A DNA stretch of 20,000 nt from an uncultured virus (IMG/VR IMGVR_UViG_3300037343_000250). Lineage: Duplodnaviria > Heunggongvirae > Uroviricota > Caudoviricetes. Each line of letters starts with the position of its first letter. The first letter of the stretch is position 1. The notes under the pieces were generated by a model. The model made no database searches. It was not told the DNA's origin and was given only the letters and a program-made list of their open reading frames with translations. Of this stretch, positions 3,675-19,955 are shown piece after piece. The position numbers and the translations under genes were made by a program. The stretch is taken from IMG/VR virus record IMGVR_UViG_3300037343_000250, positions 51,520-71,519 of that record; one strand, written 5' to 3'.

Positions 3675-3700
3675 GAAAACATATCAAAGGAAAACACGCT

Positions 3701-3817: not shown

Positions 3818-3818
3818 C

Positions 3819-3959: not shown

Positions 3960-3973
3960 AACTAAATTGGTGC

Positions 3974-4008
3974 TTGACAGGATACGGATTAATTGATAAT
4001 CTGTATTC
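3974..4008 (+). promoter_or_regulatory. sigma70-type promoter overlapped by a 12-bp hairpin
   Basis: TTGACA-N17-TAATCT with TG extension; arms GGATACGGATTA 3980-3991 / TAATCTGTATTC 3997-4008. Confidence 0.7.
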
Positions 4009-4035
4009 ATAAGGTAACACAAAAAGGAACGAAAC

Positions 4036-4377
4036 ATGTCTTACATCTCAAAAGAAATGAAGTCTGTCCGTATGCCAAACATCAAAGCCGTACTGAAAAA
4101 GTATGACATGAAAGGTACTGTTTCTATACCTAACAATTCTAAGATAGTCGTTACACTTACTTCAGGTAAGGTTAATATTGGCGAAAATGTAAATGTTTAC
4201 AACATTGATTATAACTTTAAAGGTGTTGCAAAAGACTTTTTGAACGAACTTGTTGCCGCAATGAAAGGCAGCGATTGGTATGATAATTCCGAAGTCAATA
4301 GCGATTACTTTGATGTCGCATTTTATTACGGTATTGATGTAGGTAGGTGGCCTAAGAAATTCGTACTTACAGAGTAA
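4036..4377 (+). CDS. conserved phage hypothetical protein (113 aa)
   Basis: SD AAGGA. The C-terminal WYDNS....DYFDVA.Y..I.VG.W motif is recalled from a widespread phage early-protein family. Confidence 0.8.
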   Translation: MSYISKEMKSVRMPNIKAVLKKYDMKGTVSIPNNSKIVVTLTSGKVNIGENVNVYNIDYNFKGVAKDFLNELVAAMKGSDWYDNSEVNSDYFDVAFYYGIDVGRWPKKFVLTE

Positions 4378-4405
4378 TTTTAACATGAAATTAATGAGGG
4401 CTTGA

Positions 4406-6403
4406 ATGTCAAACTTCCTAACGTTTTCTAAACTGGTGCGCAAACAATTTGATATGATGTCAAAAGGCGAGCTATTTACCACAGATATTGATACAGATGT
4501 TCTTTGGAATGCTTATCTAGGAGCATTTCCACAAGGTACTGATCCTATTTTTAAAGAGCGCACAGAACATGATTGTAACTGCTGCAAACAATTTATTGCC
4601 AATATTGCAAATGCAGTATCTATTAAAGATGGTGTAATGACAACAGTTTGGGATGCCGCTATTGTAGATGCACCTCATCCATATGACGTAGTATCTGCGA
4701 CAATGGCAGAAATTGTTCGGTCAAGCAATGTGAAAAATATTTTTCGCAAATCCGAAGCACGTTATGGTCAAGAAGTAAGCTACCAACAAATTGAGAATAA
4801 TGATGTGAAACAGTGGCATCATTTTGAAGCAGAACTAAAATGCAAATTTGTTTCTGCTGAAGGCCCAACTCTCATGTCAGTCGCAAAATCAAATGTGCAT
4901 GTTTTTCAGCGTGGGTTAGACGAGCTAAGTATGTCTGCAATTGATTCTGTATTGGATCTTATCAAATCTAACAGCATCTATCGTGGGCAAGAGTTTCAAT
5001 CCATCATGGAACAGTTTAAACATTTTAAAGAGCAGTACGGAAAGCTTAATTCAGACCAATCTAAAAATTCATATGTATGGGAACACTTTTCTAATTTTGC
5101 ATCCCGTCTTCGCAACACTGTAATTGGTTCGCTGGTTCAAGATTTGACAGAAGGCGTTGATTTAGAACAGGCTGTGCGGATGTACGAGTCGAAAGTGGCA
5201 CCTGACACTTATAAGCGTACTACATCACTTATCACGCCAAATATGATCAAAGAAGCAATGAAAACTGTTGATGATTTGGGCATTGGTGAAAGCCTAAAGC
5301 GTCGTTTTGCGAATCTATCTGATATCAGCGTAAACGATGTTTTGTTTGTAGATACGAAGGCTCGTGATCAGATGAAAGATGGCGGGATTGCGGATCTTCT
5401 AATGAAAGAAGTAAAACCACAGAAAAAAGCTACACAACATAAAATTGAAATTGGCATTTCAGAATTTATCAACACTGTAATTCCACGTTCCGAATCTATG
5501 GAATTGCTGTTGAAAAATGAATTGTCGGAAAATCTTATGAGTTTGACAGCACCTATCAATGAAGATGCACAAAACATTTTTAAATGGGATAACAACCTAT
5601 CTTGGTCATATAATGGTAATGTTGCTGATTCTATCAAAGAAAAGGTGAAGCGCGCGGGGGGTAATGTAGATGCTCAGATGCGCGTAAGCCTGAATTGGTT
5701 TAATACAGATGATTTGGATATCTATGTAACTGAACCAAATGGCAATCGCATTTATTTTAGTAACAAATCAAATAAGCTTGATGTTGATATGAATGTCAGT
5801 AATCCTGTTTGTGATGCGGTGGAGAACGTTCGGTGGTTGACTACGCCTAGTGATGGGTGTTATAGTGTTATGGTCAATAATTTTACCAAACGGGAATCTA
5901 TTGATGTGGGATTCAATCTTGAAGTAGAATCACATGGTAAGATTTATGAGTTTTCTTATCCTAAAGGGGTACAAGGTAATGTAAAATCTATCGAGATTTA
6001 TGTTAAGAATGGTGAAATTGTTTCAATTGATAAGCATTCCGGCATCCAAGAAAATTCTGCGTGCAGAGAAATTTGGAATTTGAAAACAGAAACATTCGTA
6101 AAAGTCAATACTATTGCTACCAGCCCAAACTATATGGATGAAAATGGTTCGGGGAATAAGCACTGGTTTTTTGTGCTTGATGATTGTATCAATCCAGATG
6201 AGACAAGAGGATTCTACAACGAACAATTGCGCACCGACCTAACAAAACATCGCAAAGTGTTTGAAATCCTTGCAGACAAACTAAAATGCGAGTATACTAC
6301 AAAGCAGATGAGCGGCGTCGGTTTTTCTTCTACCAAAAAGAATTCTGTTGTTGTTCATGCTAAAGGCGAAAAACTTAATCAACTCTATAAAATAAACTTT
6401 TGA
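4406..6403 (+). CDS. large conserved phage protein (665 aa) with HDCxCC motif and YfaP/DUF2135-like domain
   Basis: EHDCNCCKQF near the N-terminus; RVSLNWFNTDDLDIYVTEPNG...LDVD...AVENV resembles YfaP-like domains. Confidence 0.8.
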   Translation: MSNFLTFSKLVRKQFDMMSKGELFTTDIDTDVLWNAYLGAFPQGTDPIFKERTEHDCNCCKQFIANIANAVSIKDGVMTTVWDAAIVDAPHPYDVVSATMAEIVRSSNVKNIFRKSEARYGQEVSYQQIENNDVKQWHHFEAELKCKFVSAEGPTLMSVAKSNVHVFQRGLDELSMSAIDSVLDLIKSNSIYRGQEFQSIMEQFKHFKEQYGKLNSDQSKNSYVWEHFSNFASRLRNTVIGSLVQDLTEGVDLEQAVRMYESKVAPDTYKRTTSLITPNMIKEAMKTVDDLGIGESLKRRFANLSDISVNDVLFVDTKARDQMKDGGIADLLMKEVKPQKKATQHKIEIGISEFINTVIPRSESMELLLKNELSENLMSLTAPINEDAQNIFKWDNNLSWSYNGNVADSIKEKVKRAGGNVDAQMRVSLNWFNTDDLDIYVTEPNGNRIYFSNKSNKLDVDMNVSNPVCDAVENVRWLTTPSDGCYSVMVNNFTKRESIDVGFNLEVESHGKIYEFSYPKGVQGNVKSIEIYVKNGEIVSIDKHSGIQENSACREIWNLKTETFVKVNTIATSPNYMDENGSGNKHWFFVLDDCINPDETRGFYNEQLRTDLTKHRKVFEILADKLKCEYTTKQMSGVGFSSTKKNSVVVHAKGEKLNQLYKINF

Positions 6404-6414
6404 AGGGAAATAAT

Positions 6415-6813
6415 ATGAATATTTTTGAAAATGCTACACGTCGTAAATTCGGGTTCACTTCAGTTGTGGGGGTTCTTACTGTGACAGAATTGTGGGATTT
6501 GCCGCTTACATCTGCGCGCGGCGCAAACTTAAATGATGTTGCAAAGGCTATCAATCGTGATTTGAAAATGCAAGAAGAAGATACTTTTGTCTCAACTTCT
6601 GTAAACACCAAACGTGCAGTAGACGAACAGAAGCTCGAATTGGTCAAATATATCATTGCTGTAAAGCAACAAGAAAACGCCCAACGTATTGAATCTGCCG
6701 AAAAAGCAAAACGTAAAGAGCAATTGCTTACACTTTTGGCAAAAAGGAAAGATCAAATTCTGGAAAATAAGACACTGGAAGAAATTCAGGCAGAATTGGC
6801 TACATTGGACTGA
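6415..6813 (+). CDS. conserved phage coiled-coil protein (132 aa), neighbour of the 665-aa gene
   Basis: MNIFE.ATR.K..F....G.LTV.ELWDLPLTS motif; charged helical C-terminus; SD GAAGGGA. Confidence 0.8.
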   Translation: MNIFENATRRKFGFTSVVGVLTVTELWDLPLTSARGANLNDVAKAINRDLKMQEEDTFVSTSVNTKRAVDEQKLELVKYIIAVKQQENAQRIESAEKAKRKEQLLTLLAKRKDQILENKTLEEIQAELATLD

Positions 6814-6818
6814 TTATA

Positions 6819-6843
6819 GGGGCAGACTAAATTAGTCTGCCCC
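6819..6843 (+). terminator. GC-rich perfect hairpin without U-tract (terminator or stabilising stem)
   Basis: GGGGCAGACTAA-A-TTAGTCTGCCCC, just after the stop at 6813. Confidence 0.6.
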
Positions 6844-6871
6844 ACCACCAACCGCAACAAAGGACATAATT

Positions 6872-7147
6872 ATGGAAAAGAAAAAAATTAGCATTGTAAT
6901 TTCCGGTGCTACTGGGGCCGGAAAATCCACAGTTGCCGCCTATATTATGAAGGCATTTAGTGATGCTAAAGTAGAAGTCAAATTTCTAGACGAAGATCTT
7001 TCTTCTATCGAGCACAAAAATCTATTTGCCGAGCAAAGTAGACTAGAAGCAGTACTTTCCAATGTTGCTATATCACTAGAGACAAAACAGTTAAAACTAA
7101 TTGGCTGTGTTAGAGGGTTCTGCATTGCCAAGGATGTAATTGAATGA
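6872..7147 (+). CDS. small P-loop protein (91 aa)
   Basis: IVISGATGAGKST Walker A; SD AAGGA. Confidence 0.7.
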   Translation: MEKKKISIVISGATGAGKSTVAAYIMKAFSDAKVEVKFLDEDLSSIEHKNLFAEQSRLEAVLSNVAISLETKQLKLIGCVRGFCIAKDVIE

Positions 7148-7302
7148 ATGAACATCATAGTAAATTATTATTATTTTTGCTGGCAGCAGAAAACAATGAT
7201 CCCACTATGCGTTTTGGGGTCTATACTATCCATGAAGCTATCAATAGTCTTGCATCAATACTCGAAACCACTCCAGACAAATTACGAAAATCGTTAGAAT
7301 AA
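7144..7302 (+). CDS. small hypothetical protein (52 aa)
   Basis: ATGA overlap; MNEHHSKLLLFLLAAENNDPTMRFGVYTIHEAINSLASILETTPDKLRKSLE*. Confidence 0.6.
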   Translation: MNEHHSKLLLFLLAAENNDPTMRFGVYTIHEAINSLASILETTPDKLRKSLE

Positions 7303-7325
7303 AATTTTATTAGTTATCAAAGCTA

Positions 7326-7363
7326 TTGACAGTGCAGTAAAAATAGTATAATTTTTTATTGTA
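7326..7363 (+). promoter_or_regulatory. sigma70-type promoter with TATAAT in a hairpin loop
   Basis: TTGACA 7326, then TATAAT 7347-7352 (N15) or TAATTT (N17); arms TGCAGTAAAAA 7333-7343 / TTTTTATTGTA 7353-7363. Confidence 0.65.
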
Positions 7364-7390
7364 ACCAAAGTAAACAGAAAGAGACTTAAA

Positions 7391-7558
7391 ATGAATGCTG
7401 ATGAATTATCTGAGCTACTTAGCGAAAACTTCGCGTTGGATGTGGAAGTAATCCAAGGTTTTAATTGTAACGAAATACGGGTGCGTATTCGTAATATAAA
7501 CACGGGACGTGATGTTCTAACAACCTCTGCTTATTTGCCAGACCCCGAACACCAATAG
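7391..7558 (+). CDS. small hypothetical protein (55 aa)
   Basis: MNADELSELLSENFALDVEVIQGFNCNEIRVRIRNINTGRDVLTTSAYLPDPEHQ*; lies downstream of a promoter. Confidence 0.65.
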   Translation: MNADELSELLSENFALDVEVIQGFNCNEIRVRIRNINTGRDVLTTSAYLPDPEHQ

Positions 7559-7601
7559 TAGAAGTGACACAGTTAATACATTAAAATAGATAGGAAAAAT
7601 A

Positions 7602-8069
7602 ATGGTTGAAGTAATTACAATTACAAAGTTCAAGTCAAAAAATGGATTGACATACGAAACGCATGATCTTGCAAAAAAAGCAGATGATGAATATGCTTTT
7701 AGCATGTGTGATATGGGCGCTACAGAGGTCAAAAATTACGAAAAAGAATTTGATATGTATATGAAACGGTTGACATCTTTGGTAGAAACTAACAGGACTT
7801 CTTTTCCTATGTTCTGGAGACTTATAGGAAAACACACTTCCGAAAACTTTATGGCAAATAGCTATGACCAAATAGAAGAAATTGGTATGGCCATGTTTAG
7901 TACGAATTATCAGTATTATATCTCTGATGATGAAAAAACAAGAAGCATAGCAAAAAATATTATGGACAATTCAAACAAGAAAGCAGCGTATGCTTTCGTA
8001 TGGGAACGCTCCAACAAAGGCTACGAATACGAAGATGTAGAAAAATTTACTGTCACAACTTTTGGCTGA
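7602..8069 (+). CDS. hypothetical protein (155 aa)
   Basis: ORF with SD AGGA. Confidence 0.8.
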   Translation: MVEVITITKFKSKNGLTYETHDLAKKADDEYAFSMCDMGATEVKNYEKEFDMYMKRLTSLVETNRTSFPMFWRLIGKHTSENFMANSYDQIEEIGMAMFSTNYQYYISDDEKTRSIAKNIMDNSNKKAAYAFVWERSNKGYEYEDVEKFTVTTFG

Positions 8070-8103
8070 TGAAAATTATTAACAGAAAAAGACACTTTAT
8101 GTA

Positions 8104-8132
8104 TTGACTAACCATTCAATCTGTCGTATACC
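8104..8132 (+). promoter_or_regulatory. sigma70-type promoter
   Basis: TTGACT-N17-TATACC. Confidence 0.5.
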
Positions 8133-8161
8133 TATTATGTAGAAAATAGTAAGGATTTAAA

Positions 8162-8362
8162 ATGACAGGTGCTGAAAAATTAATTGCTTCTTTTTACTCG
8201 AAACCCGTTACTTTTTGTACCTCATCCGATGGATTTCGTGCGGTAGAAGTTTTTAATGTACACACATTTAGTTATGAAGTGCATGAAGTCCTTGTTTTGG
8301 CAGCGGAAATTATGAAATATAAGCGCATGATGAACCGCTTGCGCAACAAAAGAAACAAATAA
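8162..8362 (+). CDS. hypothetical protein (66 aa)
   Basis: SD AAGGA; basic C-terminus. Confidence 0.65.
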   Translation: MTGAEKLIASFYSKPVTFCTSSDGFRAVEVFNVHTFSYEVHEVLVLAAEIMKYKRMMNRLRNKRNK

Positions 8363-8408
8363 TATTTTTATGTTGGCATGAAACCAGTATAAGATTTGGT
8401 GAGGCAAA

Positions 8409-9071
8409 ATGAGTAAAACAAGATATATAGGCGATGTACACGGCTACGTTCGCGAACTGCAATTGGTCCTGAACAATCTTCCTCAGGAAGTCACTTCTGT
8501 CGTTCAAGTTGGTGATATGGGCGTGGGGTTTGAAAAAAGCAAATATTGGCACACAAATCTTGATAATATGATGGTTCGCAAAAATGCAAAATTCATTCGA
8601 GGAAATCATGACTCGCCTAATGAATGTAAGAAGATGAAATCGTGGATTCCAGATTCTACAGTTATTAATGATGTAATGTATATGGGCGGTGCTTGGTCGA
8701 TTGATCACCATTGGAGGACTATGGGTATTGACATGTGGGAGGATGAAGAACTCTCTTATGCTGATCTAAACATTGCTATCAATATGTTTGAACTTGCACA
8801 GCCAAGAGTAATGGTTACGCACGATTGTCCTGCAGAGATCGCTCTCGAACTGTTTATCAAAACAGGGAACAGTTTAGGAGGTAAAAACCAATCCAAAACT
8901 AGGACCGCATCGGCACTACAGGCCATGTTTGAAGTCCACCAGCCCGATTTGCACATTTTTGGTCATTGGCACACTGATGTTGATAAAGTTGTAAATGGGA
9001 CAAGATTTATTTGTCTTGGTGAACTCAGCTATTGTGATGTTGATGATGATACTCTTGAAGTTGCATGGTAA
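8409..9071 (+). CDS. calcineurin-like metallophosphoesterase
   Basis: GDVHG, GDMG, RGNHD, THDCP and FGHWH motifs; SD GAGG. Confidence 0.92.
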   Translation: MSKTRYIGDVHGYVRELQLVLNNLPQEVTSVVQVGDMGVGFEKSKYWHTNLDNMMVRKNAKFIRGNHDSPNECKKMKSWIPDSTVINDVMYMGGAWSIDHHWRTMGIDMWEDEELSYADLNIAINMFELAQPRVMVTHDCPAEIALELFIKTGNSLGGKNQSKTRTASALQAMFEVHQPDLHIFGHWHTDVDKVVNGTRFICLGELSYCDVDDDTLEVAW

Positions 9072-9107
9072 AAATAATATAATCACTTTGAAATTAAGGA
9101 ACATTTC

Positions 9108-9473
9108 ATGAAAAATTATAAAGTTGACAATTGGGTTATTATAAAATTTAATGGTGTGGAACCACACTATAGAGTTCTCAGTGGAAAATCAGGTGGCTAC
9201 CTTGATGGTAGCAGTTGGTGCATGGAAAGCGGCATCATAAGTGTTAAAAGTAGAACTGACCATTATGTGAGTCTAGGCGAAAAGATAGAAATCTTTTTGT
9301 ATGAATTTTTCAGCACAAGTGGTTCTTGTTACACTTGCAACAAAGAATCTTACGGTATCAAAATGAACAACGCATATGTTTGGGACAAGCTAAAAAAAAT
9401 CCATGGGGATGAAGTCGAATTGATGAACGAAGATACAGATTGGCTGGACATTGATTGGCTGATCAAAGTATAG
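9108..9473 (+). CDS. conserved phage hypothetical protein (paralog of 1749-2069)
   Basis: DNWV..PHYRV..G.SGGY..G.SW.M.SGI...GS.Y.C.K.SY....NNA.VWD.L.K.HGD.VE, shared with 1749-2069. Confidence 0.85.
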   Translation: MKNYKVDNWVIIKFNGVEPHYRVLSGKSGGYLDGSSWCMESGIISVKSRTDHYVSLGEKIEIFLYEFFSTSGSCYTCNKESYGIKMNNAYVWDKLKKIHGDEVELMNEDTDWLDIDWLIKV

Positions 9474-9601
9474 TATTATAAATTTCAGTACTATAGTTGT
9501 TGGATTATAATCCAAGAACATTTTCAACAGTGTTTTCTAAATTAGCGATTGTTGCGTTGATTGCATTGTGGCCTATCACCTATAAAAGAACGTAATATCT
9601 A

Positions 9602-9658
9602 TTGACTTTGATCTACTGAAAAAGTATAGTTGACGCAACACTTCGATTAGCTTATAAC
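9602..9658 (+). promoter_or_regulatory. two tandem sigma70-type promoters
   Basis: TTGACT(9602)-N17-TATAGT(9625-9630) and TTGACG(9630)-N17-TATAAC(9653-9658). Confidence 0.75.
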
Positions 9659-9675
9659 AATAAAAGGTCTGTGAA

Positions 9676-9876
9676 ATGAAAGTTTATATTTACCTACATG
9701 ACTGGCATGTTGATTATGATATGCACGGTACTAATATCGTCTGGGTGTCAGATGAACTACATCTACCAACTTATAATTCTATAATTCAATGCTGTCACCG
9801 AGTGGAGTTCTGGGAAGACGGGATCAAACAATGGACTAAGGAACAAGTCGGAAAAATGTCACCAAATTGGATCTGA
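9676..9876 (+). CDS. hypothetical protein (66 aa)
   Basis: Follows the tandem promoters; SD AAGGT. Confidence 0.7.
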   Translation: MKVYIYLHDWHVDYDMHGTNIVWVSDELHLPTYNSIIQCCHRVEFWEDGIKQWTKEQVGKMSPNWI

Positions 9877-9919
9877 TAAACATCTTTTGGCTAATTTTTA
9901 TATGTGTATCGGAAAGCGC

Positions 9920-10093
9920 ATGGAATTTAAAAACTACAAACCAAAGCATTACTCTGGAATGCCAGAAGAATTAAAGTCTTATGATGAAGTGGAAGTTGTA
10001 TTTTCGGATTCGGATGAGTCTTGGATTGACATTGCTTGTAACTTTGGGTGGAATAAATGTGATATTGTGAAATATAGAAAAGTGACAAAATGA
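9920..10093 (+). CDS. hypothetical protein (start uncertain, 9887-9920)
   Basis: ORF ending ...FGW...DIVKYRKV; ATGA coupling to the next gene. Confidence 0.6.
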   Translation: MEFKNYKPKHYSGMPEELKSYDEVEVVFSDSDESWIDIACNFGWNKCDIVKYRKVTK

Positions 10094-10341
10094 TAATAGA
10101 TATAGAAACGATATTGTCGAATCAAAGAGGTTATAGCAAAGATATTATCTTTGGAACTTTTGACGAATTTATGATAATTGATGAAACAGATTGGCTTTCT
10201 GAAAACATATCATTCATTGAACCTAAAGTTAAAGACTGGGAATCGCGCATTCCAGATAGTAATCCATTTAATAGATCAATATCAAACCCGTCCGAAAAGA
10301 CACGCGCAAAACTTCGCTCAAAAAGAAAGAATAAGAAATGA
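10090..10341 (+). CDS. hypothetical protein (83 aa, basic tail)
   Basis: ATGA overlaps at both ends. Confidence 0.7.
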   Translation: MIIDIETILSNQRGYSKDIIFGTFDEFMIIDETDWLSENISFIEPKVKDWESRIPDSNPFNRSISNPSEKTRAKLRSKRKNKK

Positions 10342-10571
10342 AAGATGCTTCGGAAAAATTTCATATTGAATTTGTGAAACTAGTAGAAAATAAACCCAAT
10401 ATAACCAGACAAGATTTCTTGGAACGTGTTCCTATGATCGGTGAAGAAGTATTGACTAACACAGATGGCTCGCAGGAAAATTTTAACGGAAAAGTGACTA
10501 AAATCAGAACAGTTGTGGTGGATATGTTTTGCTATCATGTGGTCACATTGTCGGTAGAAAATGTAAGCTAA
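10338..10571 (+). CDS. hypothetical protein (77 aa)
   Basis: ATGA overlap with the upstream gene. Confidence 0.7.
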   Translation: MKDASEKFHIEFVKLVENKPNITRQDFLERVPMIGEEVLTNTDGSQENFNGKVTKIRTVVVDMFCYHVVTLSVENVS

Positions 10572-10604
10572 AAATATTGAATTTATCAAAGAAGGAAATT
10601 AGTA

Positions 10605-10868
10605 ATGGGATATTCACGCATTAGCCAAACCGCTAAAGACTTCTGGCCTGTCAATACGCCTACCGAATTGTATCTATATTTTCCTGATGGTTATGTCATC
10701 AGTGAAATTTTAAATATGGCTAAAGATCACTTTGGCGATGATTCTGATATCAATAATATCGAAATTAGCGCAGAATATATCCACACATCTGATATTAACT
10801 ATGATCAATACGTTTCGTGTGACTATACAAACTTTATCGTATTGAAGAAAAAAGCACAAACTAATTAG
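10605..10868 (+). CDS. conserved phage hypothetical protein (87 aa)
   Basis: SD AAGGA; FWP.NT..ELY...I.AEYIHT..I.YD.Y...DYTNFIV pattern. Confidence 0.8.
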   Translation: MGYSRISQTAKDFWPVNTPTELYLYFPDGYVISEILNMAKDHFGDDSDINNIEISAEYIHTSDINYDQYVSCDYTNFIVLKKKAQTN

Positions 10869-10886
10869 GTGTGAGCCGAAAAAATA

Positions 10887-10915
10887 TTGTCTATCGCCAT
10901 AGAATATGTTATATT
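10887..10915 (+). promoter_or_regulatory. sigma70-type promoter, extended -10
   Basis: TTGTCT-N17-TATATT with TG. Confidence 0.6.
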
Positions 10916-10940
10916 GATACTTGAAAATGAAAGAAACCAA

Positions 10941-11162
10941 ATGAAACTAATTGCCATAGCATTACTGTCGTCCTTGATCTTGGCTGGGTGCAACGAAGAA
11001 GGCAATGATTATACTAAATCATTCACATCAGTTTGTCTTTCAGACGTTCAATACTGGTACAGGAATTCCTCGCATAAAGGATTTCTTGCAGTAAGAATTG
11101 ATTCCGAGACATTGCAGCCAATGCGCTGTATTCAGCATCAAAATTCCTATGAAGCTAATTGA
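10941..11162 (+). CDS. lipoprotein (73 aa)
   Basis: MKLIAIALLSSLILAG-C signal peptide with LAGC lipobox when started at ATG 10941. Confidence 0.8.
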   Translation: MKLIAIALLSSLILAGCNEEGNDYTKSFTSVCLSDVQYWYRNSSHKGFLAVRIDSETLQPMRCIQHQNSYEAN

Positions 11163-11355
11163 TAAACTCATGGATATAGATGCCATGCTGTATGGTAAAG
11201 GCGGAACAAACTTTATCAATATTCGCATTGTGATGGATGATATTGATGATCTAGTTTTGGAAAAAAACAGCAATGCAATTAAATTTGCAGATAGTATGGA
11301 ATTACTACATTCAGTATTAAAGAAAGTAACGGAAATAAAATCTGATAATAGGTAA
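11149..11355 (+). CDS. hypothetical protein (68 aa)
   Basis: ATG 11149 overlaps the end of the lipoprotein gene. Confidence 0.6.
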   Translation: MKLIDKLMDIDAMLYGKGGTNFINIRIVMDDIDDLVLEKNSNAIKFADSMELLHSVLKKVTEIKSDNR

Positions 11356-11374
11356 ATTTAAATAAGAGAATTAG

Positions 11375-12289
11375 ATGGGCTGTTGGAATGGAACTTGTGG
11401 ACTTACTAACTTACCAATTCACGATGGCGAGAAGATGTATGTATTTCCTGTATTAGAAAACGACTTGAGTAGCTATCGCAGTCATTGCTACAGTAGTGCA
11501 TTATACAAACCTATGCTTACACCATTCGTTTCTGTGTATAATGACTACGGCGCGGGCGAAGAATCTTCTGGCATTGCGCTAGACATTATTATGGAAAGCA
11601 TTCAAGAAAATCTAGTGGAACTCGAAATTGGCAAAAACACCTATCACGACATTGCTGTTAAAAAAGAAGGATTTACAGTAGATACATTCTTTGAAGCAGC
11701 ACACGAGGATCGGCTTTTTGTGCAAGGATATGGTAAAAAGTCAGCGGTGTATTTTACAATGGTACGCAAAGATGTAGTTGATAATATGTTTAATTCGTGG
11801 ACATTTGATATGTATATGGGCGAGGGCAAGGCGGGCAATCCTTCCGACAGCTACGAACGTAATGTAACATATGCAAAACAGAGAGAATATATCCCTGAAT
11901 TTATTGATACGATCAAATGTACCATAGAAGATGCCGATGATGAAATTTCAAAATATTTAGTAGCAAGTTCAATTAGGAATATTTCAAATAAAATACCTAT
12001 GCTAAAATATCTATGCTATTCGTTTGATAGTAGCGAACACTGGCGTCTCACTCAAATTGAACATAAACTTGTCGAATTTATTACCAAAGGTCTTATTAAT
12101 GATGCAATCGAGTTGGCAAGAATCCAACTGTTAGGAACAATGGTAAATAGAATGATGGGAAATACACGAAAAATATGGCTTCCGGTTATGCATCAAGGAA
12201 GTCAGAGTCAAAGTTACGATACATACAAGTATCTGAATGAATTAACTAGTGAAGTTATTGCGGAACGAGAAAGACTGTACGAGGAATAA
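11375..12289 (+). CDS. conserved phage hypothetical protein (304 aa)
   Basis: Long ORF; MGCWNGTCGLTNLPI N-terminus and YNDYG motif. Confidence 0.85.
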   Translation: MGCWNGTCGLTNLPIHDGEKMYVFPVLENDLSSYRSHCYSSALYKPMLTPFVSVYNDYGAGEESSGIALDIIMESIQENLVELEIGKNTYHDIAVKKEGFTVDTFFEAAHEDRLFVQGYGKKSAVYFTMVRKDVVDNMFNSWTFDMYMGEGKAGNPSDSYERNVTYAKQREYIPEFIDTIKCTIEDADDEISKYLVASSIRNISNKIPMLKYLCYSFDSSEHWRLTQIEHKLVEFITKGLINDAIELARIQLLGTMVNRMMGNTRKIWLPVMHQGSQSQSYDTYKYLNELTSEVIAERERLYEE

Positions 12290-12306
12290 ATGTGTTGACA
12301 TGTTGT

Positions 12307-12314
12307 TATAAATA
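12307..12314 (+). promoter_or_regulatory. T4-like late promoter consensus TATAAATA
   Basis: Exact TATAAATA in an intergenic gap; the upstream TTGACA (12295) has no matching -10 at N17. Confidence 0.4.
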
Positions 12315-12320
12315 GTAGTA

Positions 12321-12337
12321 GCAAAAGGAGTTTTTGC
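12321..12337 (+). promoter_or_regulatory. SD hairpin 1
   Basis: GCAAAAG-GAG-TTTTTGC before ATG 12341. Confidence 0.75.
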
Positions 12338-12340
12338 ATA

Positions 12341-12985
12341 ATGAATAATAAAATTTACGGGACGCTTCCTATTGACATGGGAAAAGTAGAATTGAACCCT
12401 GCTGAAATGATGTTTTGGATGTACTGCCCGATTAAAGCACCTAATATGACACAAACGAAAATTCCTGAAAATTTAATGCAGTATCAACCCTTAATTGCAC
12501 TGATCAAACAAGATCGAGGTAGTGAATGGAAATCCGATTATGTTTACATCACAGCAAAGACTTTGTATGTGACTCCTGAAAGTACAGGAAACAGAGCTGG
12601 GTGGCACAGTGATGGATATCTGACCAACGATATAAACTATATTTGGTCAGACACTAATCCAACAGTATTTTTTGACGACAGCAATTTACACGAATTTTCC
12701 CAAAACCACAATGACTCTATGCATGAAATGGCAGCACTATGTTCAAACCATGCAAAATATCAAGTTAGGTTTGAAAACAAACATCTGTTAAAGCTAGATC
12801 AGTATGTCCTACACAAAGTCGATACTAATATTCAAGCAGGAATGCGAACATTTGTTAAAATTAGTGTGTCTAAGAATATCTACGCACTAAAAGGAAATTC
12901 AATCAATCATAAACTTTGTATTGCCCAATATTATCAAAACAGGCAACTTGAAAGAAACTGCCCCACTGGTGCAAATAATATTTGA
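12341..12985 (+). CDS. putative 2OG-Fe(II) dioxygenase-like phage protein
   Basis: NRAGWHSDG (HxD), distal LH, and RTFVKIS, matching a jelly-roll HxD...H...R pattern. Confidence 0.65.
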   Translation: MNNKIYGTLPIDMGKVELNPAEMMFWMYCPIKAPNMTQTKIPENLMQYQPLIALIKQDRGSEWKSDYVYITAKTLYVTPESTGNRAGWHSDGYLTNDINYIWSDTNPTVFFDDSNLHEFSQNHNDSMHEMAALCSNHAKYQVRFENKHLLKLDQYVLHKVDTNIQAGMRTFVKISVSKNIYALKGNSINHKLCIAQYYQNRQLERNCPTGANNI

Positions 12986-13010
12986 CATCTTACTATTAAT
13001 TAACTATAAT
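12982..13010 (+). promoter_or_regulatory. consensus sigma70 promoter
   Basis: TTGACA-N17-TATAAT, exact consensus. Confidence 0.9.
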
Positions 13011-13015
13011 ATAAA

Positions 13016-13030
13016 GCTAAGGAGTTTAGC
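13016..13030 (+). promoter_or_regulatory. SD hairpin 2
   Basis: GCTAAG-GAG-TTTAGC before ATG 13033. Confidence 0.75.
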
Positions 13031-13032
13031 AA

Positions 13033-13395
13033 ATGAATACTATCTACAGAGTAGAAAATCCTCTAACCCAACAAGGCTTATGGTACAGAGAAGATGGGTC
13101 ATTTAATCCATTAATCAAAACACTTACAAATGCTATTGCGCGCGATTTTCCAATGGGGTTTGACCCTGCTTTTAAAGTGGACGGTCTTGATTGGATTAGT
13201 GGCTGTGATAACCTTACTGATATGCAAAATTGGTTTTCGGTGCAGGATCTTACAGAACTGCATACAAGAGGATATGATTTATTCAAATTTAAAGTTGAAA
13301 AATATCGAACTGTAAACGGACATGCAGTGTTTGCCAACGAACATGTATTGAGTAACACCAAACTTGATATGTCATTACTAAAGAAAATTTACTGA
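13033..13395 (+). CDS. hypothetical protein (120 aa) upstream of the NAD salvage genes
   Basis: Has promoter and SD; IYRVEN....GLWY N-terminus. Confidence 0.8.
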   Translation: MNTIYRVENPLTQQGLWYREDGSFNPLIKTLTNAIARDFPMGFDPAFKVDGLDWISGCDNLTDMQNWFSVQDLTELHTRGYDLFKFKVEKYRTVNGHAVFANEHVLSNTKLDMSLLKKIY

Positions 13396-13396
13396 A

Positions 13397-13413
13397 TTTA
13401 GAGGAGTTCTAAA
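13397..13413 (+). promoter_or_regulatory. SD hairpin 3
   Basis: TTTAGAG-GAG-TTCTAAA immediately before ATG 13414. Confidence 0.75.
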
Positions 13414-14448
13414 ATGATTAAACAATTTGATACACTGGTATTTTGTGGCCGATTTCAGCCATTTCATATTGGGCACCAGTCAGTTATTGACCAAGCATTA
13501 CTTAAAGCGCATGAAGTTGTGATCGTAATTGGTTCCAGCTTTCAAGCGCGTTCAACAAAAAATCCATTTACATTTTCCGAGCGGTCTGCTATGATTAGAG
13601 CAGTATACACACAAGATAATGTAAAGATAGTGGGTGTGATGGATTATCCATATGATGATAATGCTTGGGTAAGTGCGGTTCAAAGCGCGGTTGATGCTGT
13701 TAAGTTAGGGTCAAAAACTGGATTGGTAGGACACTCCAAAGACAGTAGCTCATATTACCTGAAAATCTTCCCGCAATGGAGCGATCATGTAGAAGTCGCA
13801 AACATGGGTAATATCAATGCAACTGATATCCGAAAAGCGATGTTTGAATTTGGTATATTTCGGGGAATTGCCGAATTTTATTCAGATACAATCCCAGAAG
13901 AAGTAAATTATGTAATAGATGATATTGTGCGCGAATGGTCGCATGAAAGCTGGGAATTGCTTGTGCAAGAATATGCTAAAATTAAAGCTTATAAGAATGC
14001 TTGGAAAGATGCACCCGATGTGCCACTGGTTTTTGTGACAACGGATGCTGTTATCACACAGGGCGGCTACGTGTTGCTTATCAAGCGTCGTAGGTTTCCA
14101 TTCAAGGATTGCTGGGCATTACCAGGTGGCTACTTGGCGAAGGGCGAAACGATTGTAGATAACATGATCAAAGAACTGCGCGAAGAAACCTGCGTAAAGA
14201 TTCCCGCAAAAGTGCTAAAAGGCTCTATCAAAGACGTTAAGATTTTTGATCATCCTGAACGCGATCCTCGTGGTCGCACTATCACCCATGGATTCCATGT
14301 GGATCTTGGGTTCCCTATTGAGGGCTTACCTAAAGTAAAAGGTGCTGATGACGCCAAAGAAGCTAAGTGGGTACTTTTGAGCAAAATTACCAGTGAAATG
14401 ATGGCGTTTGACCATTATGCAATCATTACATCTTTTATCAGGATTTGA
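13414..14448 (+). CDS. nadM: bifunctional NMN adenylyltransferase / Nudix ADP-ribose hydrolase
   Basis: GRFQPFHIGH (HxGH), KNPFTFSER, GHSKDSSSYYL, INATDIR; Nudix box GGYLAKGETIVDNMIKELREET; RDPRGRTIT, GADDA. Confidence 0.95.
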   Translation: MIKQFDTLVFCGRFQPFHIGHQSVIDQALLKAHEVVIVIGSSFQARSTKNPFTFSERSAMIRAVYTQDNVKIVGVMDYPYDDNAWVSAVQSAVDAVKLGSKTGLVGHSKDSSSYYLKIFPQWSDHVEVANMGNINATDIRKAMFEFGIFRGIAEFYSDTIPEEVNYVIDDIVREWSHESWELLVQEYAKIKAYKNAWKDAPDVPLVFVTTDAVITQGGYVLLIKRRRFPFKDCWALPGGYLAKGETIVDNMIKELREETCVKIPAKVLKGSIKDVKIFDHPERDPRGRTITHGFHVDLGFPIEGLPKVKGADDAKEAKWVLLSKITSEMMAFDHYAIITSFIRI

Positions 14449-14449
14449 T

Positions 14450-14575
14450 ATGACAATACCTACATGCAAACATTGGGCGATCATAACATACACAAGTGTA
14501 TTTGTGCCAAGAGACAAGCGTTCCCAGATATCTCTTGGGCACGGTTATTTCGAACACCGCGAAGAAAGTATTTGA
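14450..14575 (+). CDS. 41-aa ORF, possibly a truncated gene remnant
   Basis: MTIPTCKHWAIITYTSVFVPRDKRSQISLGHGYFEHREESI*; TGA-T-ATG junctions at both ends. Confidence 0.55.
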   Translation: MTIPTCKHWAIITYTSVFVPRDKRSQISLGHGYFEHREESI

Positions 14576-14576
14576 T

Positions 14577-14786
14577 ATGGCGCACAGATTGATTATTGAA
14601 GGCTTCAACACCAAAGCAGAGGCACAGGCGTTTGCTGATTGGTATGAAGGCGCTGGAGAGCAAGACGCTGCAAACTGGTTCGAGGCTCGAAAAGAAGAGG
14701 GCGTAATTGATGTTGATTGGATGGGAAATGTTGGTACTGTCCAAGAAGATGGAAACGATCTTATCATGACGGTGAAGCCACAATGA
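14577..14786 (+). CDS. hypothetical protein (69 aa)
   Basis: MAHRLIIEGFNTKAEAQAFADWYEGAGEQ; ATG coupled to the upstream stop. Confidence 0.75.
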   Translation: MAHRLIIEGFNTKAEAQAFADWYEGAGEQDAANWFEARKEEGVIDVDWMGNVGTVQEDGNDLIMTVKPQ

Positions 14787-15061
14787 ATATGACCTTAGTT
14801 TTGGCAGGAATAATCTTGTGGTTTGGCATTAGTTCAGCATATTTCTTATGCAACATGGGCAAGAAAAATATGAAAGAGCCTTGGTATATTTGGATATTTC
14901 TGCCGCCTGTAATTATTTCATTGCTAATATTCTTGGTACTGCCATTTTCTTTTGGATATTTTTTAGAATGGGTTTTTGAGAGTAGACTTCGTTCGCATAC
15001 AAGTGTTGTAAAAGGTGTTATTGGGAACATCAGAGACTTTATGCAGGGCTTTCTAAAATAA
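14783..15061 (+). CDS. membrane protein (92 aa, 2 TM segments)
   Basis: ATGA overlap; two hydrophobic stretches. Confidence 0.7.
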   Translation: MNMTLVLAGIILWFGISSAYFLCNMGKKNMKEPWYIWIFLPPVIISLLIFLVLPFSFGYFLEWVFESRLRSHTSVVKGVIGNIRDFMQGFLK

Positions 15062-15064
15062 TAG

Positions 15065-15093
15065 TTGACATTTGATGATATAAAATATATAGT
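15065..15093 (+). promoter_or_regulatory. sigma70-type promoter
   Basis: TTGACA-N17-TATAGT. Confidence 0.8.
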
Positions 15094-15134
15094 ATAATCT
15101 ATTACAAAATAACATAAATAAAGACGTTATAACA

Positions 15135-15151
15135 TCATAAGGAGTTTATGA
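15135..15151 (+). promoter_or_regulatory. SD hairpin 4
   Basis: TCATAAG-GAG-TTTATGA before ATG 15154. Confidence 0.75.
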
Positions 15152-15153
15152 AA

Positions 15154-16608
15154 ATGACCAATGTACTATCTCTACTAACTGCAATTATCCGAACTGATAG
15201 CTATAAATTGAGCCAGTTCTTGCAGTATCCTCCAGATACTACCCGTATCAGTTCATATATCGAATCTCGCGGCGGTGAAGAAAAAAGTGTTTTCTTCGGC
15301 TTGCAAGCATTTATCAAGCAGTATATGCTCACGCCAATCACACAAAAAGATATCAATATGGCGGAAAAGCTTGTGCTTGCACACGGGTTGCCATTCAATC
15401 GTGAGGGTTGGGAAATTATTGTCAACGAATATGACGGTATGCTACCACTTCAAATTGAAGCAGTGCCCGAAGGTACTGTTATGGAAACACGAAATGTACA
15501 GGTTCAAGTTGTCAACACTGATCCTCGACTGTTTTGGTTGACCTCTTATATCGAAACTGCGATCTTGCGCGGTATTTGGTATCCTTCTACCGTCGCGACA
15601 AAAAGCCGTAAACTGAAAAAGATTATTGCGGCTGGATTGCATAAAACAAGCGATATTCCAGTAAATGATCAAATTCAGTTCAAATTGCACGACTTTGGTG
15701 CAAGAGGCGCTAGTAGCTCAGAATCTGCAATGCTTGGTGGCATGGCACACTTGACTAACTTTATGGGCACTGATACAGTAGAAGCACTTGTGGGTGCAAT
15801 GGAATACTATAATTCAGAAGTAGTGCCTGGGTTTAGTATCCCCGCTAGTGAGCATAGTACAATTTGTGGGTGGGGAGGACCAGAAGGCGAAGTTGTTGCA
15901 TTTGAAAATATGATAGTCAAATTTGCTGGGGAAGGCAAGATTTACGCTTGTGTAAGCGACAGTTATGATATCTATGCCGCGTGTCGAGAGTTGTGGGGTG
16001 GTGTTCTGAAAGATAAAGTAATTTCATCAGGTGGAACTTTGGTAGTTCGTCCTGACTCTGGCGATCCAATGACAGTACCAATCGAAGTATTGAATATTCT
16101 TGCCGAAAAGTTTGGCTTTGCGGTAAACAGCAAAGGATATAAAGTTTTGCCTTCTTATATTCGTGTAATTCAAGGCGATGGCCTCAATGAAGAAACCCTT
16201 CCTATCCTGATTAAAAACGTGATAGATGCTGGGTTTTCACTTGACAATATAGCATTTGGTATGGGTGGCGGATTGCTACAAGCTTGGAATAGAGACACAC
16301 TTAAGTATGCAATGAAAGCAAGTGCTCGTGAGGATACCAATGGTATTTGGCATAATGTATTCAAAGACCCAATTTCAGACAAAGGCAAGACTTCTAAGAA
16401 AGGTCTTTTGGGGCTTGTGTATGACTGTGGTGTGGGTAGCTGTAGTTATAAAACAGTACCTAAGAATGTTGCAACAGAAAAAGGAAACCTGCTTCGTACA
16501 GTGTATCGCAATGGTGCTCTCTTAATTGAAGATACATTTGATGAAGTTAGAGCTCGGGCCGAACTAAAAGTTGAAGAGTATTCACCTCAGATTGTAGAAA
16601 GATATTAA
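15154..16608 (+). CDS. nadV: nicotinamide phosphoribosyltransferase (NAMPT)
   Basis: TDSYK, YIESRGG, LHDFGARG, IPASEHS, VSDSYD, RPDSGDP, FGMGGGL motifs. SD spacing favours ATG 15154 over 15148. Confidence 0.95.
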   Translation: MTNVLSLLTAIIRTDSYKLSQFLQYPPDTTRISSYIESRGGEEKSVFFGLQAFIKQYMLTPITQKDINMAEKLVLAHGLPFNREGWEIIVNEYDGMLPLQIEAVPEGTVMETRNVQVQVVNTDPRLFWLTSYIETAILRGIWYPSTVATKSRKLKKIIAAGLHKTSDIPVNDQIQFKLHDFGARGASSSESAMLGGMAHLTNFMGTDTVEALVGAMEYYNSEVVPGFSIPASEHSTICGWGGPEGEVVAFENMIVKFAGEGKIYACVSDSYDIYAACRELWGGVLKDKVISSGGTLVVRPDSGDPMTVPIEVLNILAEKFGFAVNSKGYKVLPSYIRVIQGDGLNEETLPILIKNVIDAGFSLDNIAFGMGGGLLQAWNRDTLKYAMKASAREDTNGIWHNVFKDPISDKGKTSKKGLLGLVYDCGVGSCSYKTVPKNVATEKGNLLRTVYRNGALLIEDTFDEVRARAELKVEEYSPQIVERY

Positions 16609-16616
16609 CATAAAGA

Positions 16617-16636
16617 GGGGCAGGGAAACTTGCCCC
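16617..16636 (+). terminator. GNRA-loop hairpin, probable terminator
   Basis: GGGGCAGG-GAAA-CTTGCCCC after the nadV stop, with a weak U-rich tail. Confidence 0.65.
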
Positions 16637-16663
16637 CATTCACTTTAAGTATTGGATAATAAA

Positions 16664-16819
16664 ATGGAAATTGATATGCGCTCAAAAGAATATGTTGAAT
16701 GGACTGCAAATGTTTGGAAACTAAATTCCAAACGAAACGAAATTTTACAAAGAGAAATCCGACGGCAGGAAGATTTAAATTGGGTAGCAGAGTTTAGTAG
16801 TCAAGATAATGATGTTTAA
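16664..16819 (+). CDS. small hypothetical protein (51 aa)
   Basis: MEIDMRSKEYVEWTANVWKLNSKRNEILQREIRRQEDLNWVAEFSSQDNDV*; GGA upstream. Confidence 0.55.
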   Translation: MEIDMRSKEYVEWTANVWKLNSKRNEILQREIRRQEDLNWVAEFSSQDNDV

Positions 16820-16822
16820 CTA

Positions 16823-16851
16823 TTGACAGCGATATATATCTAGTTTATGTT
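16823..16851 (+). promoter_or_regulatory. sigma70-type promoter
   Basis: TTGACA-N17-TATGTT. Confidence 0.7.
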
Positions 16852-16898
16852 TATCTTTATGGAAATGAACACACAAAGGAGGTATGAGGTTATATACT

Positions 16899-17171
16899 AT
16901 GAAAAAAGAAGAATTTGATGCGCTAGATAAAGAAATCCGAACACTAGTGACAGAAGGATATATTGATGGATTTGAAACAGCGATTATGGTGGTAAAATCA
17001 ATTGCCATGCGTGTTGGCGACAAAGAACTGGATGATAATTATAAGGCGGCACCTGATTTTGCTGTCAGTCTTTTGAATAATAACTTAGACATGTTGAAGC
17101 GTGATGAATTGATTATGTTGGGACGAGATGAATTGAATATGTTGAAGGGTGGCAATGATGATAAACTTTGA
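16899..17171 (+). CDS. hypothetical protein with C-terminal 8-aa repeats
   Basis: SD GAGG 16886-16889; repeats MLKRDELI / MLGRDELN / MLKG. Confidence 0.75.
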   Translation: MKKEEFDALDKEIRTLVTEGYIDGFETAIMVVKSIAMRVGDKELDDNYKAAPDFAVSLLNNNLDMLKRDELIMLGRDELNMLKGGNDDKL

Positions 17172-18018
17172 TGATGAGGAAAGCAATGCAGCCGATGCAA
17201 AACAAGATCAACTCGAACAAAATAGAAATTTCATGCTAAATCTTGATGAAAGTGAAAGCAATGCCGCCGATGCTATTCTTGAGCCAAAAGATTATTTTGC
17301 CGACTTAAAAAGCAAAATAACTGATGTTCAGTACGATCAGCTAGAACAGAATCGTGGGTTCATTGGCAAAGAAATCGAAAAGGCAAATCGTCTAGGCCAA
17401 AAGAATCTTACCCATAAAGCATCTTATATGTGGGAAATTCTCGAAAAAGAACTAATTTTACATGCTATGGGGCTTACTAAGTATGTGCATCGTCAAGATG
17501 TCATATTGCTTATTGACAAAGTGAAACCAAAAAACTCTGTAAAAATAGTTGAACTTGAAAATTATCCTCGGTCAATTCCAGACGCGAATATGGAAGACAT
17601 CATCAAAGCTCGTGAGCTTGGACTTTTTGATGTTTTACTTATTCTATATACAGACCTTACCGACGAAGAAGTAAACACGCCTGCGCAAAAGCAATTTGCT
17701 GCCAGAAACAAAGATCCCATTGTATTCGGCATGTTTATTAATGATAAGATCAATCTAAAACATGATCGTCTATACTTTATTACTGACTGGGAAGATGAGT
17801 TTTGTGAACTTACATTTACAAAGATGATTGACAAGATGTCTGAAATGGGGATTAAAAATCCCGAAAAAAATATAACCATAGATGAAAATCACATCAATTC
17901 TATCGTGGCAATGTCAAAACAAGAAGTTTCTGCGGTTAAACTAGAGGAAAACTTTGTAGTATCAACACCAGAGAAAAAGAAATTCTTCTCGAAGCTAAAG
18001 GCATATCTCTTTAAATGA
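17155..18018 (+). CDS. conserved phage hypothetical protein with duplicated N-terminus
   Basis: IVELENYPRSIP, DPIVFG and DRLYFITDWEDEFCELT motifs. Confidence 0.85.
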   Translation: MMINFDDEESNAADAKQDQLEQNRNFMLNLDESESNAADAILEPKDYFADLKSKITDVQYDQLEQNRGFIGKEIEKANRLGQKNLTHKASYMWEILEKELILHAMGLTKYVHRQDVILLIDKVKPKNSVKIVELENYPRSIPDANMEDIIKARELGLFDVLLILYTDLTDEEVNTPAQKQFAARNKDPIVFGMFINDKINLKHDRLYFITDWEDEFCELTFTKMIDKMSEMGIKNPEKNITIDENHINSIVAMSKQEVSAVKLEENFVVSTPEKKKFFSKLKAYLFK

Positions 18019-18461
18019 CTCCCGATAATGATAAAACTCTACGGTCAATCTTTTGCAAAGCCGTAGTTGGCTGGGATGAATGGGATGATCGTAGAGATTA
18101 TAGACGAAAATATGAAAGTAGCGAGTTCCACTTAGGTAATGGCGTCGGCAATAGTATTTTAAGAATCATGTCATACTACATCGAAGATACCTATGGAAAG
18201 AAAAATATACTGAAAGATAATGTTACAGATAGCGAAGAATATATGCATTTTCTATCTAAAATCATGCCAGAGTCTAAGCAAGGCCAAGAGTATGATTATA
18301 TGATGTCATTCGGGATGGCTAGAAATATAGACGGCACATTTTCCAATTGTGATTGTTGCGGAAAGGACTTGAATATTATAAATTCTTCAAAGTTTGCTAT
18401 GTGTGATGCTTGCTATGATGTCCATAGTGAAAAAATTATACCTAAAATAGATTTACGTTAG
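18015..18461 (+). CDS. hypothetical protein with C-terminal CxxC...CxxC Zn ribbon
   Basis: CDCCG...CDAC; overlaps the upstream stop codon. Confidence 0.75.
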   Translation: MTPDNDKTLRSIFCKAVVGWDEWDDRRDYRRKYESSEFHLGNGVGNSILRIMSYYIEDTYGKKNILKDNVTDSEEYMHFLSKIMPESKQGQEYDYMMSFGMARNIDGTFSNCDCCGKDLNIINSSKFAMCDACYDVHSEKIIPKIDLR

Positions 18462-18551
18462 GTAAATAAGCTTAAAATTTATCTGTCAAGAAAAATACAA
18501 TATACCTAAATATGTTAGTGCTGGTTGGCCCAAGCATATTGGAGGGAAATC

Positions 18552-19766
18552 ATGAATTACGAATCAGCACTTGATGTAGTATTAGACAGATTACGTTTGG
18601 AGTCGCGGTATAGGACTTTCATAGATATTGAACGTATAAGAGGTAGGTATCCTACTGCATTATGGCACAAACCAAATGGGGATAAAAAAGAAATTACCGT
18701 TTGGTGTGGTAATGACTATCTTGGTATGGGGCAGCACCCAATCATTATAGATGCAATGATTACGGCATTAGATGCTACCGGAGCGGGTTCTGGGGGCACA
18801 AGAAACATTTCTGGGACAACAGTATACCATACCAGTCTTGAAAAAGAATTGGCGGAATTACATGGAACAGAATCTGCTTTGGTTTTTACATCAGCCTATA
18901 ATGCCAATGATGCCACATTATCAACCCTGTCAAAAATCTTCCAAAATCTCATAATATATTCGGACGAGCTAAATCATGCTTCTATTATAGAAGGGGTGCG
19001 GCGCAATAATACCACAAAAAGAATTTTTCGCCATAACGATGTTCAACATCTGCGTGAGTTGTTGAACAATGACGAACCTTCATTACCAAAGTTAATTGTA
19101 TTTGAATCGATATATTCTATGGATGGTGATTTTGGGCCAATCAAAGAAATTTGTGATTTGGCTGAAGAGTTTAATGCACTCACATATATAGACGAGGTTC
19201 ACGCGGTTGGTATGTATGGGCCGCGTGGTGCAGGTGTTGCGGAACGCGATGGTGTTATGCATAAATTAGATATTATAAATGGTACATTAGCCAAAGCATA
19301 TGGAGTTGCTGGTGGTTATATCGCGGCAAGCTCAAGAATGTGTGATGCTATACGGTCATACGCCCCAGGTTTTATTTTCACATCTTCCATGCCACCATCA
19401 GTTGCCGCTGGTGCAACAGCGTCAGTTAATTATTTGAAAAATGCACAACATTTGCGGGACAAACAACAATTAAATGCAAAAATACTAAAAGATAGGTTTA
19501 AGGCGATAGGACTTCCTGTAATTGATTATGGTAGCCATATCGTACCAGTTCAAGTAGGTGATCCAATCAATTGCAAAATATTATCAGACATTCTACTCGA
19601 AAAATATGGGATATACGTTCAGCCAATTAATTTTCCTACAGTACCAAGAGGAACAGAAAGATTACGCTTTACACCTTCACCTTTGCATGATACAGAACAG
19701 ATAGATATATTGGTTAATGCCATGGAAGATCTATGGGCACATTATATCATAGGCGGAACTACTTGA
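18552..19766 (+). CDS. hemA: 5-aminolevulinate synthase (Shemin pathway)
   Basis: [70 protein letters not shown] (PLP lysine), [32 protein letters not shown] before ATG 18552. Confidence 0.95.
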
Positions 19767-19883
19767 TTCCACATATTTGAAATTGAAAAATTATTTTGCC
19801 AAAGCTGATTTTAAATATATGGAATTTAACAATAAAATTTATAAAAATCACTAGGTTACTTCATCTTCATCCCATTAACATTG

Positions 19884-19911
19884 ATTATACCAGGATTTTT
19901 ATATTTGTCAA
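19884..19911 (-). promoter_or_regulatory. leftward sigma70-type promoter
   Basis: Minus strand TTGACA (19911-19906)-N16-TATAAT (19889-19884). Confidence 0.55.
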
Positions 19912-19926
19912 GACATAAAATGCATG

Positions 19927-19955
19927 TTTACAAATATTATTTCTTGTGTTATGTT
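19927..19955 (+). promoter_or_regulatory. sigma70-type promoter, extended -10
   Basis: TTTACA-N17-TATGTT with TG. Confidence 0.55.

Follow-up and report, generated by a model that had tools for sequence, protein, structure and literature searches.

A gene at positions 18552-19766 of the window (the whole 20,000-nt stretch analyzed, corresponding to the terminal 20 kb of one 71,519-nt contig, G000, from a virus record estimated to be 35% complete) encodes a true, intact 5-aminolevulinate synthase (ALAS) and resides in a bona fide T4-like phage. The best explanation, to which we assign a probability of roughly 75%, is that this is an active viral ALAS, an auxiliary metabolic gene (AMG) whose donor was a Pseudorhodobacter-like bacterium and whose capture was independent of the published vAlaS clade, and that a sublineage lost both heme ligands of the enzyme and would thereby have escaped heme feedback.

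Viral ALAS is a known class of AMG. According to the accessible portion of Wegner et al. 2024, Nat Commun (PMC11480375), valaS is found in myophages of aquatic habitats, by itself or together with hemO and pcyA/X, and a published vAlaS complements E. coli ST18. Viral alaS was also tracked in an estuary study (PMC13390420, accessible portion). With published, experimentally validated examples and relatives encoded by 512 IMG/VR stretches, the view in a preliminary description of this DNA that phage ALAS is rarely described did not hold. Like the valaS of Wegner et al., the query belongs to a T4-like myophage of an aquatic habitat with additional genes for a heme oxygenase and a bilin reductase, and its product lacks the feedback residues. 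The novelty lies in the separate acquisition of the gene and in a feedback site whose loss can be given a direction, the sister phages serving as natural controls.

An intact ALAS gene within a T4-like phage genome

The valaS/hemA frame is open on the plus strand from ATG 18552 to a stop at 19766 (404 aa). A Shine-Dalgarno-like GGAGG (18541..18545, plus strand) lies 6 nt 5' of this ATG, and because of its position we preferred ATG 18552 to an upstream TTG at 18525. The protein scored 651 bits against the ALAS equivalog model TIGR01821 of NCBIfam (cut-off 338.55), while scores against BioF (323 bits; cut-off 426), Kbl (317; cut-off 460) and SPT models all fell below their cut-offs. E. coli BioF also formed a long branch outside all ALAS sequences in the tree, and a BioF, Kbl or SPT identity was thus ruled out. 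The R. capsulatus ALAS 2BWN was the top PDB sequence match (E 4e-198). An AF2 model built from a 92-sequence alignment (pLDDT 92) matched 2BWN with a TM of 0.96 and an rmsd of 1.0 A, and all top Foldseek hits were ALAS.

The columns K248, D214, R21, T83, N85, H142, H217 and R372 are all present in the query and invariant over 276 other aligned sequences; the last six, labeled from the R. capsulatus structure, we take to be further active-site residues. Lys248 (19293..19295, plus strand) is the PLP Schiff-base lysine and Asp214 (19191..19193, plus strand) the PLP-anchoring residue, in the numbering used in the accessible portion of PMC6154995. Of 171 columns that Rhodobacteraceae and the known viral clade both conserve, the query departs at only 5. 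These results bear out the earlier description of an intact ALAS, rather than BioF or Kbl, with its catalytic and PLP-binding motifs. Among GenBank phages, 19 records matched the query, all at 27-36% identity and, where annotated, as BioF or Kbl. PHROGs held no family for the protein.

The genomic surroundings are those of a T4-like phage. A PHROG scan of 72 proteins of the contig identified T4-type gp32, UvsX, helicase, primase, gp33, thymidylate synthase, NrdA/B, endolysin and spanin, and the contig also carries 10 tRNAs. A complete relative of 208 kb (G003) has homologues of 53 of the 111 called ORFs, and its genes include those for capsid, portal, sheath, terminase, gp13 and a late sigma factor. 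The capsid of G003 reaches no more than 65% identity with cultured phages, Sinorhizobium phiN3 being the top-listed one.

With 234 nt separating hemA from the end of the 35%-complete contig, we considered whether the assembly might be chimeric or the contig might terminate in host DNA. However, an 82,991-nt IMG/VR contig with 98% identity over hemA (hereafter the 98% strain) runs on into genes for Dda helicase, RNA ligase and DNA ligase, a 34-kb contig from a different run covers 16884-19930, and the third-position GC content (GC3) of hemA is phage-like. A further contig of 2,537 nt covers 17127-19663 with 4 differences. Independent assemblies thus placed phage genes on both sides of hemA with no cellular flank, and we regard the chance of a chimera as negligible. 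The viral setting that had been put forward as a point to check was confirmed in this way, the comparison with four other runs being made on assembled contigs rather than raw reads. Seven of the 19 listed sequencing runs, none of them an RNA run, contain at least half of the sequence words; all seven are labeled salt lake metagenome, and one is possibly the source run.

The codon usage of hemA also resembles that of its phage neighbors. Its GC3 was 0.28. Fifty genes of the contig gave 0.302 +/- 0.030, and 77 bacterial hemA genes gave values of 0.59-0.94. Its log-likelihood per codon was -1.02 under phage usage versus -1.82 under bacterial hemA usage, a score within the phage gene range, though fourth from the bottom of 49.

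A TAAATA motif (18507..18512, plus strand) lies 45 nt 5' of the hemA start. We take it to be the core of the T4-type late promoter consensus, although there is no full TATAAATA match. The same core occurs at a similar distance 5' of hemA in both sister phages, and hemA is probably expressed late from this element. Beyond the gene, a minus-strand element (19884..19911) matches the sigma-70 consensus at 12 of 12 positions with a 16-nt spacer and a TG, faces the 3' end of hemA and is kept in G001. It falls within an intergenic stretch that is repeated and recombining and in which contigs from several runs part ways, with loose ends and raised depth. This antisense-facing element could be a cassette-boundary promoter or exert antisense control.

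Several other genes were noted. A tRNA-His guanylyltransferase (Thg1) gene at 2544-3386 of the window is absent from the 98% strain, which shows fast gene turnover there. An NAD salvage pair, also found in G003, comprises an NMN adenylyltransferase-NUDIX gene (13414-14448) and a nicotinamide phosphoribosyltransferase gene (15148-16608), presumably resembling the NARP2 type of phage NAD-rebuilding pathway. UvsX, helicase and NrdA are each split into separate ORFs (G000:C1:20618-23081, 23087-25052 and 41464-45183, respectively); the pieces of UvsX and those of NrdA are separated by a homing endonuclease gene, with intein-like ends. A 715-aa protein with an ADP-ribosyltransferase domain (G000:C1:14370-16517) is, we assume, T4 Alt-like.

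A capture separate from the published viral clade

The nearest named relative of the query is Pseudorhodobacter antarcticus HemA (79% identity), in agreement with the Rhodobacteraceae origin first suggested from the N-terminus. We compared the best 80 of the 512 IMG/VR relatives: three were 75-98% identical to the query and 77 only 52-57%, with 75 of these 77 falling near the published vAlaS clade. In the trees, IMG/VR loci stood for that clade in place of the paper's own sequences, and three of these loci agree in id and length with entries of the contig list of PMC11480375.

In a 30-row LG+G4 tree, the query grouped with two sister-phage copies in a clade (100/96) that nested inside a Pseudorhodobacter group (99/95), itself inside Paracoccaceae (100/100). 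Forcing the query lineage together with the published-type clade was rejected (p-AU 5.4e-7). A 24-row mixture-model tree concurred (96/89), again rejecting a single viral clade (p-AU 4.3e-6); BioF and Streptomyces were excluded from both trees as long branches. A 66-row quick tree, in which BioF fell outside, gave the same picture. The phylogeny against host HemA proposed earlier thus placed the query within Pseudorhodobacter HemA under two models, although support for P. antarcticus as its exact sister is weak. On these trees, the query nests in Pseudorhodobacter HemA and outside the published vAlaS clade, and its gene is a separate capture that two related phages have as well.

Gene order offers a further comparison. 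Two orphan genes lie within 2 kb after hemA in G003 and directly after hemA in the 98% strain, within a block located elsewhere in the genome. This synteny is consistent with one capture. In the query contig, the slot that ALAS occupies in the sister phages holds no ALAS remnant. The lineage motifs WCGNDY and RTFIDIE had 0 occurrences in the 11 readable supplements of PMC11480375, where the control WCSNDY appeared 53 and 29 times. No report of a Rhodobacteraceae-derived phage ALAS was found in the literature searched, which did not cover most subscription papers, and the accessible portion of PMC13564367 contained nothing on phage ALAS.

Phages have captured ALAS at least twice. Another ALAS, on a 4.4-kb IMG/VR contig (L012:200-2754), is of a third phage type, lies directly upstream of the terminase large subunit gene and groups with HemA of the Sulfitobacter photosynthesis cluster, apart from both viral lineages. 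It is probably a further independent capture, on a short contig, and counting it would bring the number to three. The independent capture shows that phages have turned more than once to the committed step of tetrapyrrole synthesis. In a separate IMG/VR locus with 65% GC (L010), ALAS adjoins capsid, portal and integrase-like genes, an arrangement that looks like a prophage edge with host DNA.

We propose that the ancestor of a T4-like myophage group took hemA from a Pseudorhodobacter-like bacterium and would have retained it until its third positions matched those of the phage. The query remains close to Paracoccaceae/Rhodobacteraceae HemA (2BWN, P. antarcticus), with 72-79% identity, a fold TM of 0.96 and shared active-site columns. 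It differs in GC3, in the substitutions H340N and C398Y, in replacement of the tail NRAE.SA, in its phage context and in its TAAATA leader.

Loss of the heme-feedback ligands

In the accessible portion of Ikushiro et al. 2018 (PMC6154995), the heme site of Caulobacter crescentus ALAS was mapped to His340/Cys398, and mutants without one or the other ligand resisted heme, their kinetics being unaltered. Heme binding was also noted for R. capsulatus ALAS ("data not shown"), and the His/Cys motif is absent from most alphaproteobacterial ALAS (PMC6154995). In the query, codon 340 (19569..19571, plus strand) is Asn (AAT) where relatives have His (CAT/CAC), and codon 398 (19743..19745, plus strand) is Tyr (TAT) where relatives have Cys (TGT/TGC). 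Each change is a single AT-ward substitution. Because both axial ligands of the inhibitory heme are gone, the query ALAS is predicted to escape heme feedback. It would be a natural counterpart, recognized here at the level of sequence, of the heme-resistant Caulobacter H340A/C398A double mutant, which follows the same numbering (PMC6154995, accessible portion). Unlike the Ala residues of that mutant, the phage substitutions are Asn and Tyr or Arg.

His340 was retained in 191 and Cys398 in all 195 of the bacterial-type sequences, a set of 77 of 80 genome loci (three truncated loci dropped) and 118 protein hits, mostly unnamed and assumed to be cellular. Both sister-phage copies also retain the two ligands. 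All seven members of the query's 90% cluster, two of which are the query itself, carry Asn340, and none has Cys398.

The same seven members display four different tails. The preliminary description proposed that the divergent tail could alter regulation, and it was right insofar as the tail held the heme ligand Cys398. However, the polymorphic tail is itself no new regulatory element, and the second ligand, His340, had been missed. Divergence begins at codon 398, and codons stay in frame with sister phages and bacteria, so that a frameshift origin of the tail was rejected. In one member (L200), a deletion that fuses hemA to the inside of the next gene gives the tail QRKSRKTH. Such variability shows the tail sequence to be dispensable, and the event that counts is ligand loss. 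There was no support for a compensating Cys341/His397 heme site, as both residues are ancestral (Cys341 in 116 and His397 in 92 of the 119 nearest homologues).

Escape from heme feedback by viral ALAS was proposed in the accessible portion of PMC11480375, where many vAlaS are described as being without His342 and/or Cys400 (R. capsulatus numbering). His340 occurs in 0 of 75 published-type viral copies. With the site absent from most alphaproteobacterial ALAS (PMC6154995, accessible portion), its absence in the published clade could be inherited. In contrast, ligand loss in the query has a readable direction: the donor group and two sister phages keep the site and the query branch lost it, making the feedback-escape hypothesis directly testable. 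Even so, heme inhibition was mapped in Caulobacter, with "data not shown" for R. capsulatus (PMC6154995, accessible portion), and its carry-over to Pseudorhodobacter is by analogy.

The gene is evolving under constraint. Its dN/dS was 0.21 in the comparison with the 98% strain, based on only 12 synonymous and 9-10 nonsynonymous changes, and 0.11 for the pair of sister copies, both well below 1. Synonymous sites are saturated relative to the donors, while the protein is still 77-79% identical. These codon comparisons showed that hemA is under purifying selection and, together with its phage-like GC3, match the earlier portrayal of a long-retained, ameliorated AMG with AT-rich third positions like those of its neighbors. 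A decaying passenger under relaxed selection that has lost ALA production would account for the long query branch (0.28-0.33 versus 0.03 for the nearest cell) and for 26 departures among 255 columns that bacterial relatives conserve to at least 95%, including G18S and GG153-154NT. We find decay very improbable given the dN/dS values, the saturation of synonymous sites beside a conserved protein, the intact catalytic columns and a frame open in all seven cluster members.

Whether ligand loss was itself selected is a finer question, and the case for it is moderate at best on comparative grounds. An active, separately captured ALAS may instead have lost its ligands neutrally, through AT-biased drift at surface positions irrelevant in a short lytic cycle, and we put the odds of this near even. 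The query departs at 15 of 78 columns that Rhodobacteraceae conserve and the known viral clade does not. His340 is such a column, so its loss alone has a chance of about 19%; with one ligand gone, the second would be free to change. The composition shift (GARP from 0.34 to 0.26, FYMINK from 0.21 to 0.29) and the freely replaced tail fit drift as well. Conversely, an AT-rich cellular copy (L272; GC3 0.38) retains both ligands, and the uniform lack of His340 in the published viral clade, though possibly inherited from its donor, also speaks against drift. Neutral loss disputes only the adaptive reading and not the identity of the enzyme, which may be heme-insensitive without having been selected for it.

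Under convergent selected deregulation, this lineage would have acquired a heme-inhibited Pseudorhodobacter enzyme, and one branch would then have shed both ligands under selection, independently matching the feedback-free published vAlaS clade. We hold this only tentatively. If true, the related phages with His340/Cys398 would represent an earlier stage, giving a natural before/after pair for AMG tuning after capture. Several points weigh against our best explanation as a whole: the substitutions are single AT-ward steps, the query branch is long, its dN/dS ranks 9th highest of the 35 gene pairs with a value, and two sister phages keep both ligands, so retention of the gene does not need loss of the site.

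Proposed role in tetrapyrrole flux, bilin genes and probable host

On our preferred reading, an active viral ALAS freed from heme feedback, a sublineage lost His340 and Cys398 after capture. ALA would then be made during infection, probably from the late promoter, and taken onward by the host. Consistent with this, hemB (PF00490) was found in none of three contigs, one of them complete, so ALA would be carried on by host enzymes. A heme-insensitive ALAS may benefit the phage by sustaining tetrapyrrole flux for respiration and B12, or by feeding an HemO/PcyX route.

Genes for such a route lie on the same contig, outside the window: a heme oxygenase gene, hemO (C1:17694-18308), and a bilin reductase gene (C1:4505-5191). 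The reductase matches phage PcyX (EBK42635, PDB 5OWG) with an E-value of 2e-62 and keeps the PcyX-specific Asp55. Together, the two enzymes could drain heme to biliverdin, iron and bilin. Residues that we take to be Met67, His69 and Asp86 of PcyX also align. Unlike the cassette or "broken cassette" of Wegner et al., the three genes of the query are fully dispersed (12 and 52 kb apart), and the reductase gene, unlike that of the PcyX used for comparison, is not adjacent to hemO.

The main purpose of the ALAS might be to feed the phage's own HemO-to-PcyX route, yielding phycoerythrobilin and free iron, and not to serve host respiration. G000 shares all three genes with the complete relative G003, Asp55 is kept and a Dps/ferritin gene is present too. 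Yet the genes form no cassette, they move separately (identity between G000 and G003 is 93% for the reductase, 42% for hemO and 75% for ALAS) and no bilin-binding protein was identified. We consider this purpose unlikely.

A Rhodobacteraceae host is suggested by the ALAS donor. Window positions 1-18500, compared with 301 Cypionkella-family genomes, gave just two weak matches of 31-34 nt, neither in a CRISPR-like array. A phage porin-like protein matched none of 151 Cypionkella-family genomes in a search run without a positive control. The findings would point to ~200-kb T4-like phages that infect Rhodobacteraceae and form an uncultured group.

Two further observations concern the bilin genes. 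A secreted outer-membrane beta-barrel gene (G000:C1:16777-17373), for which only 22 homologues were found, lies directly upstream of hemO in both G000 and G003. The reductase genes (G000:C1:4505-5191 and G003:C1:189480-190166) lie among tRNA genes in both phages, and their 93% identity, compared with 45-67% for core genes, suggests that the PcyX-like reductase was exchanged recently between the G000 and G003 phages.
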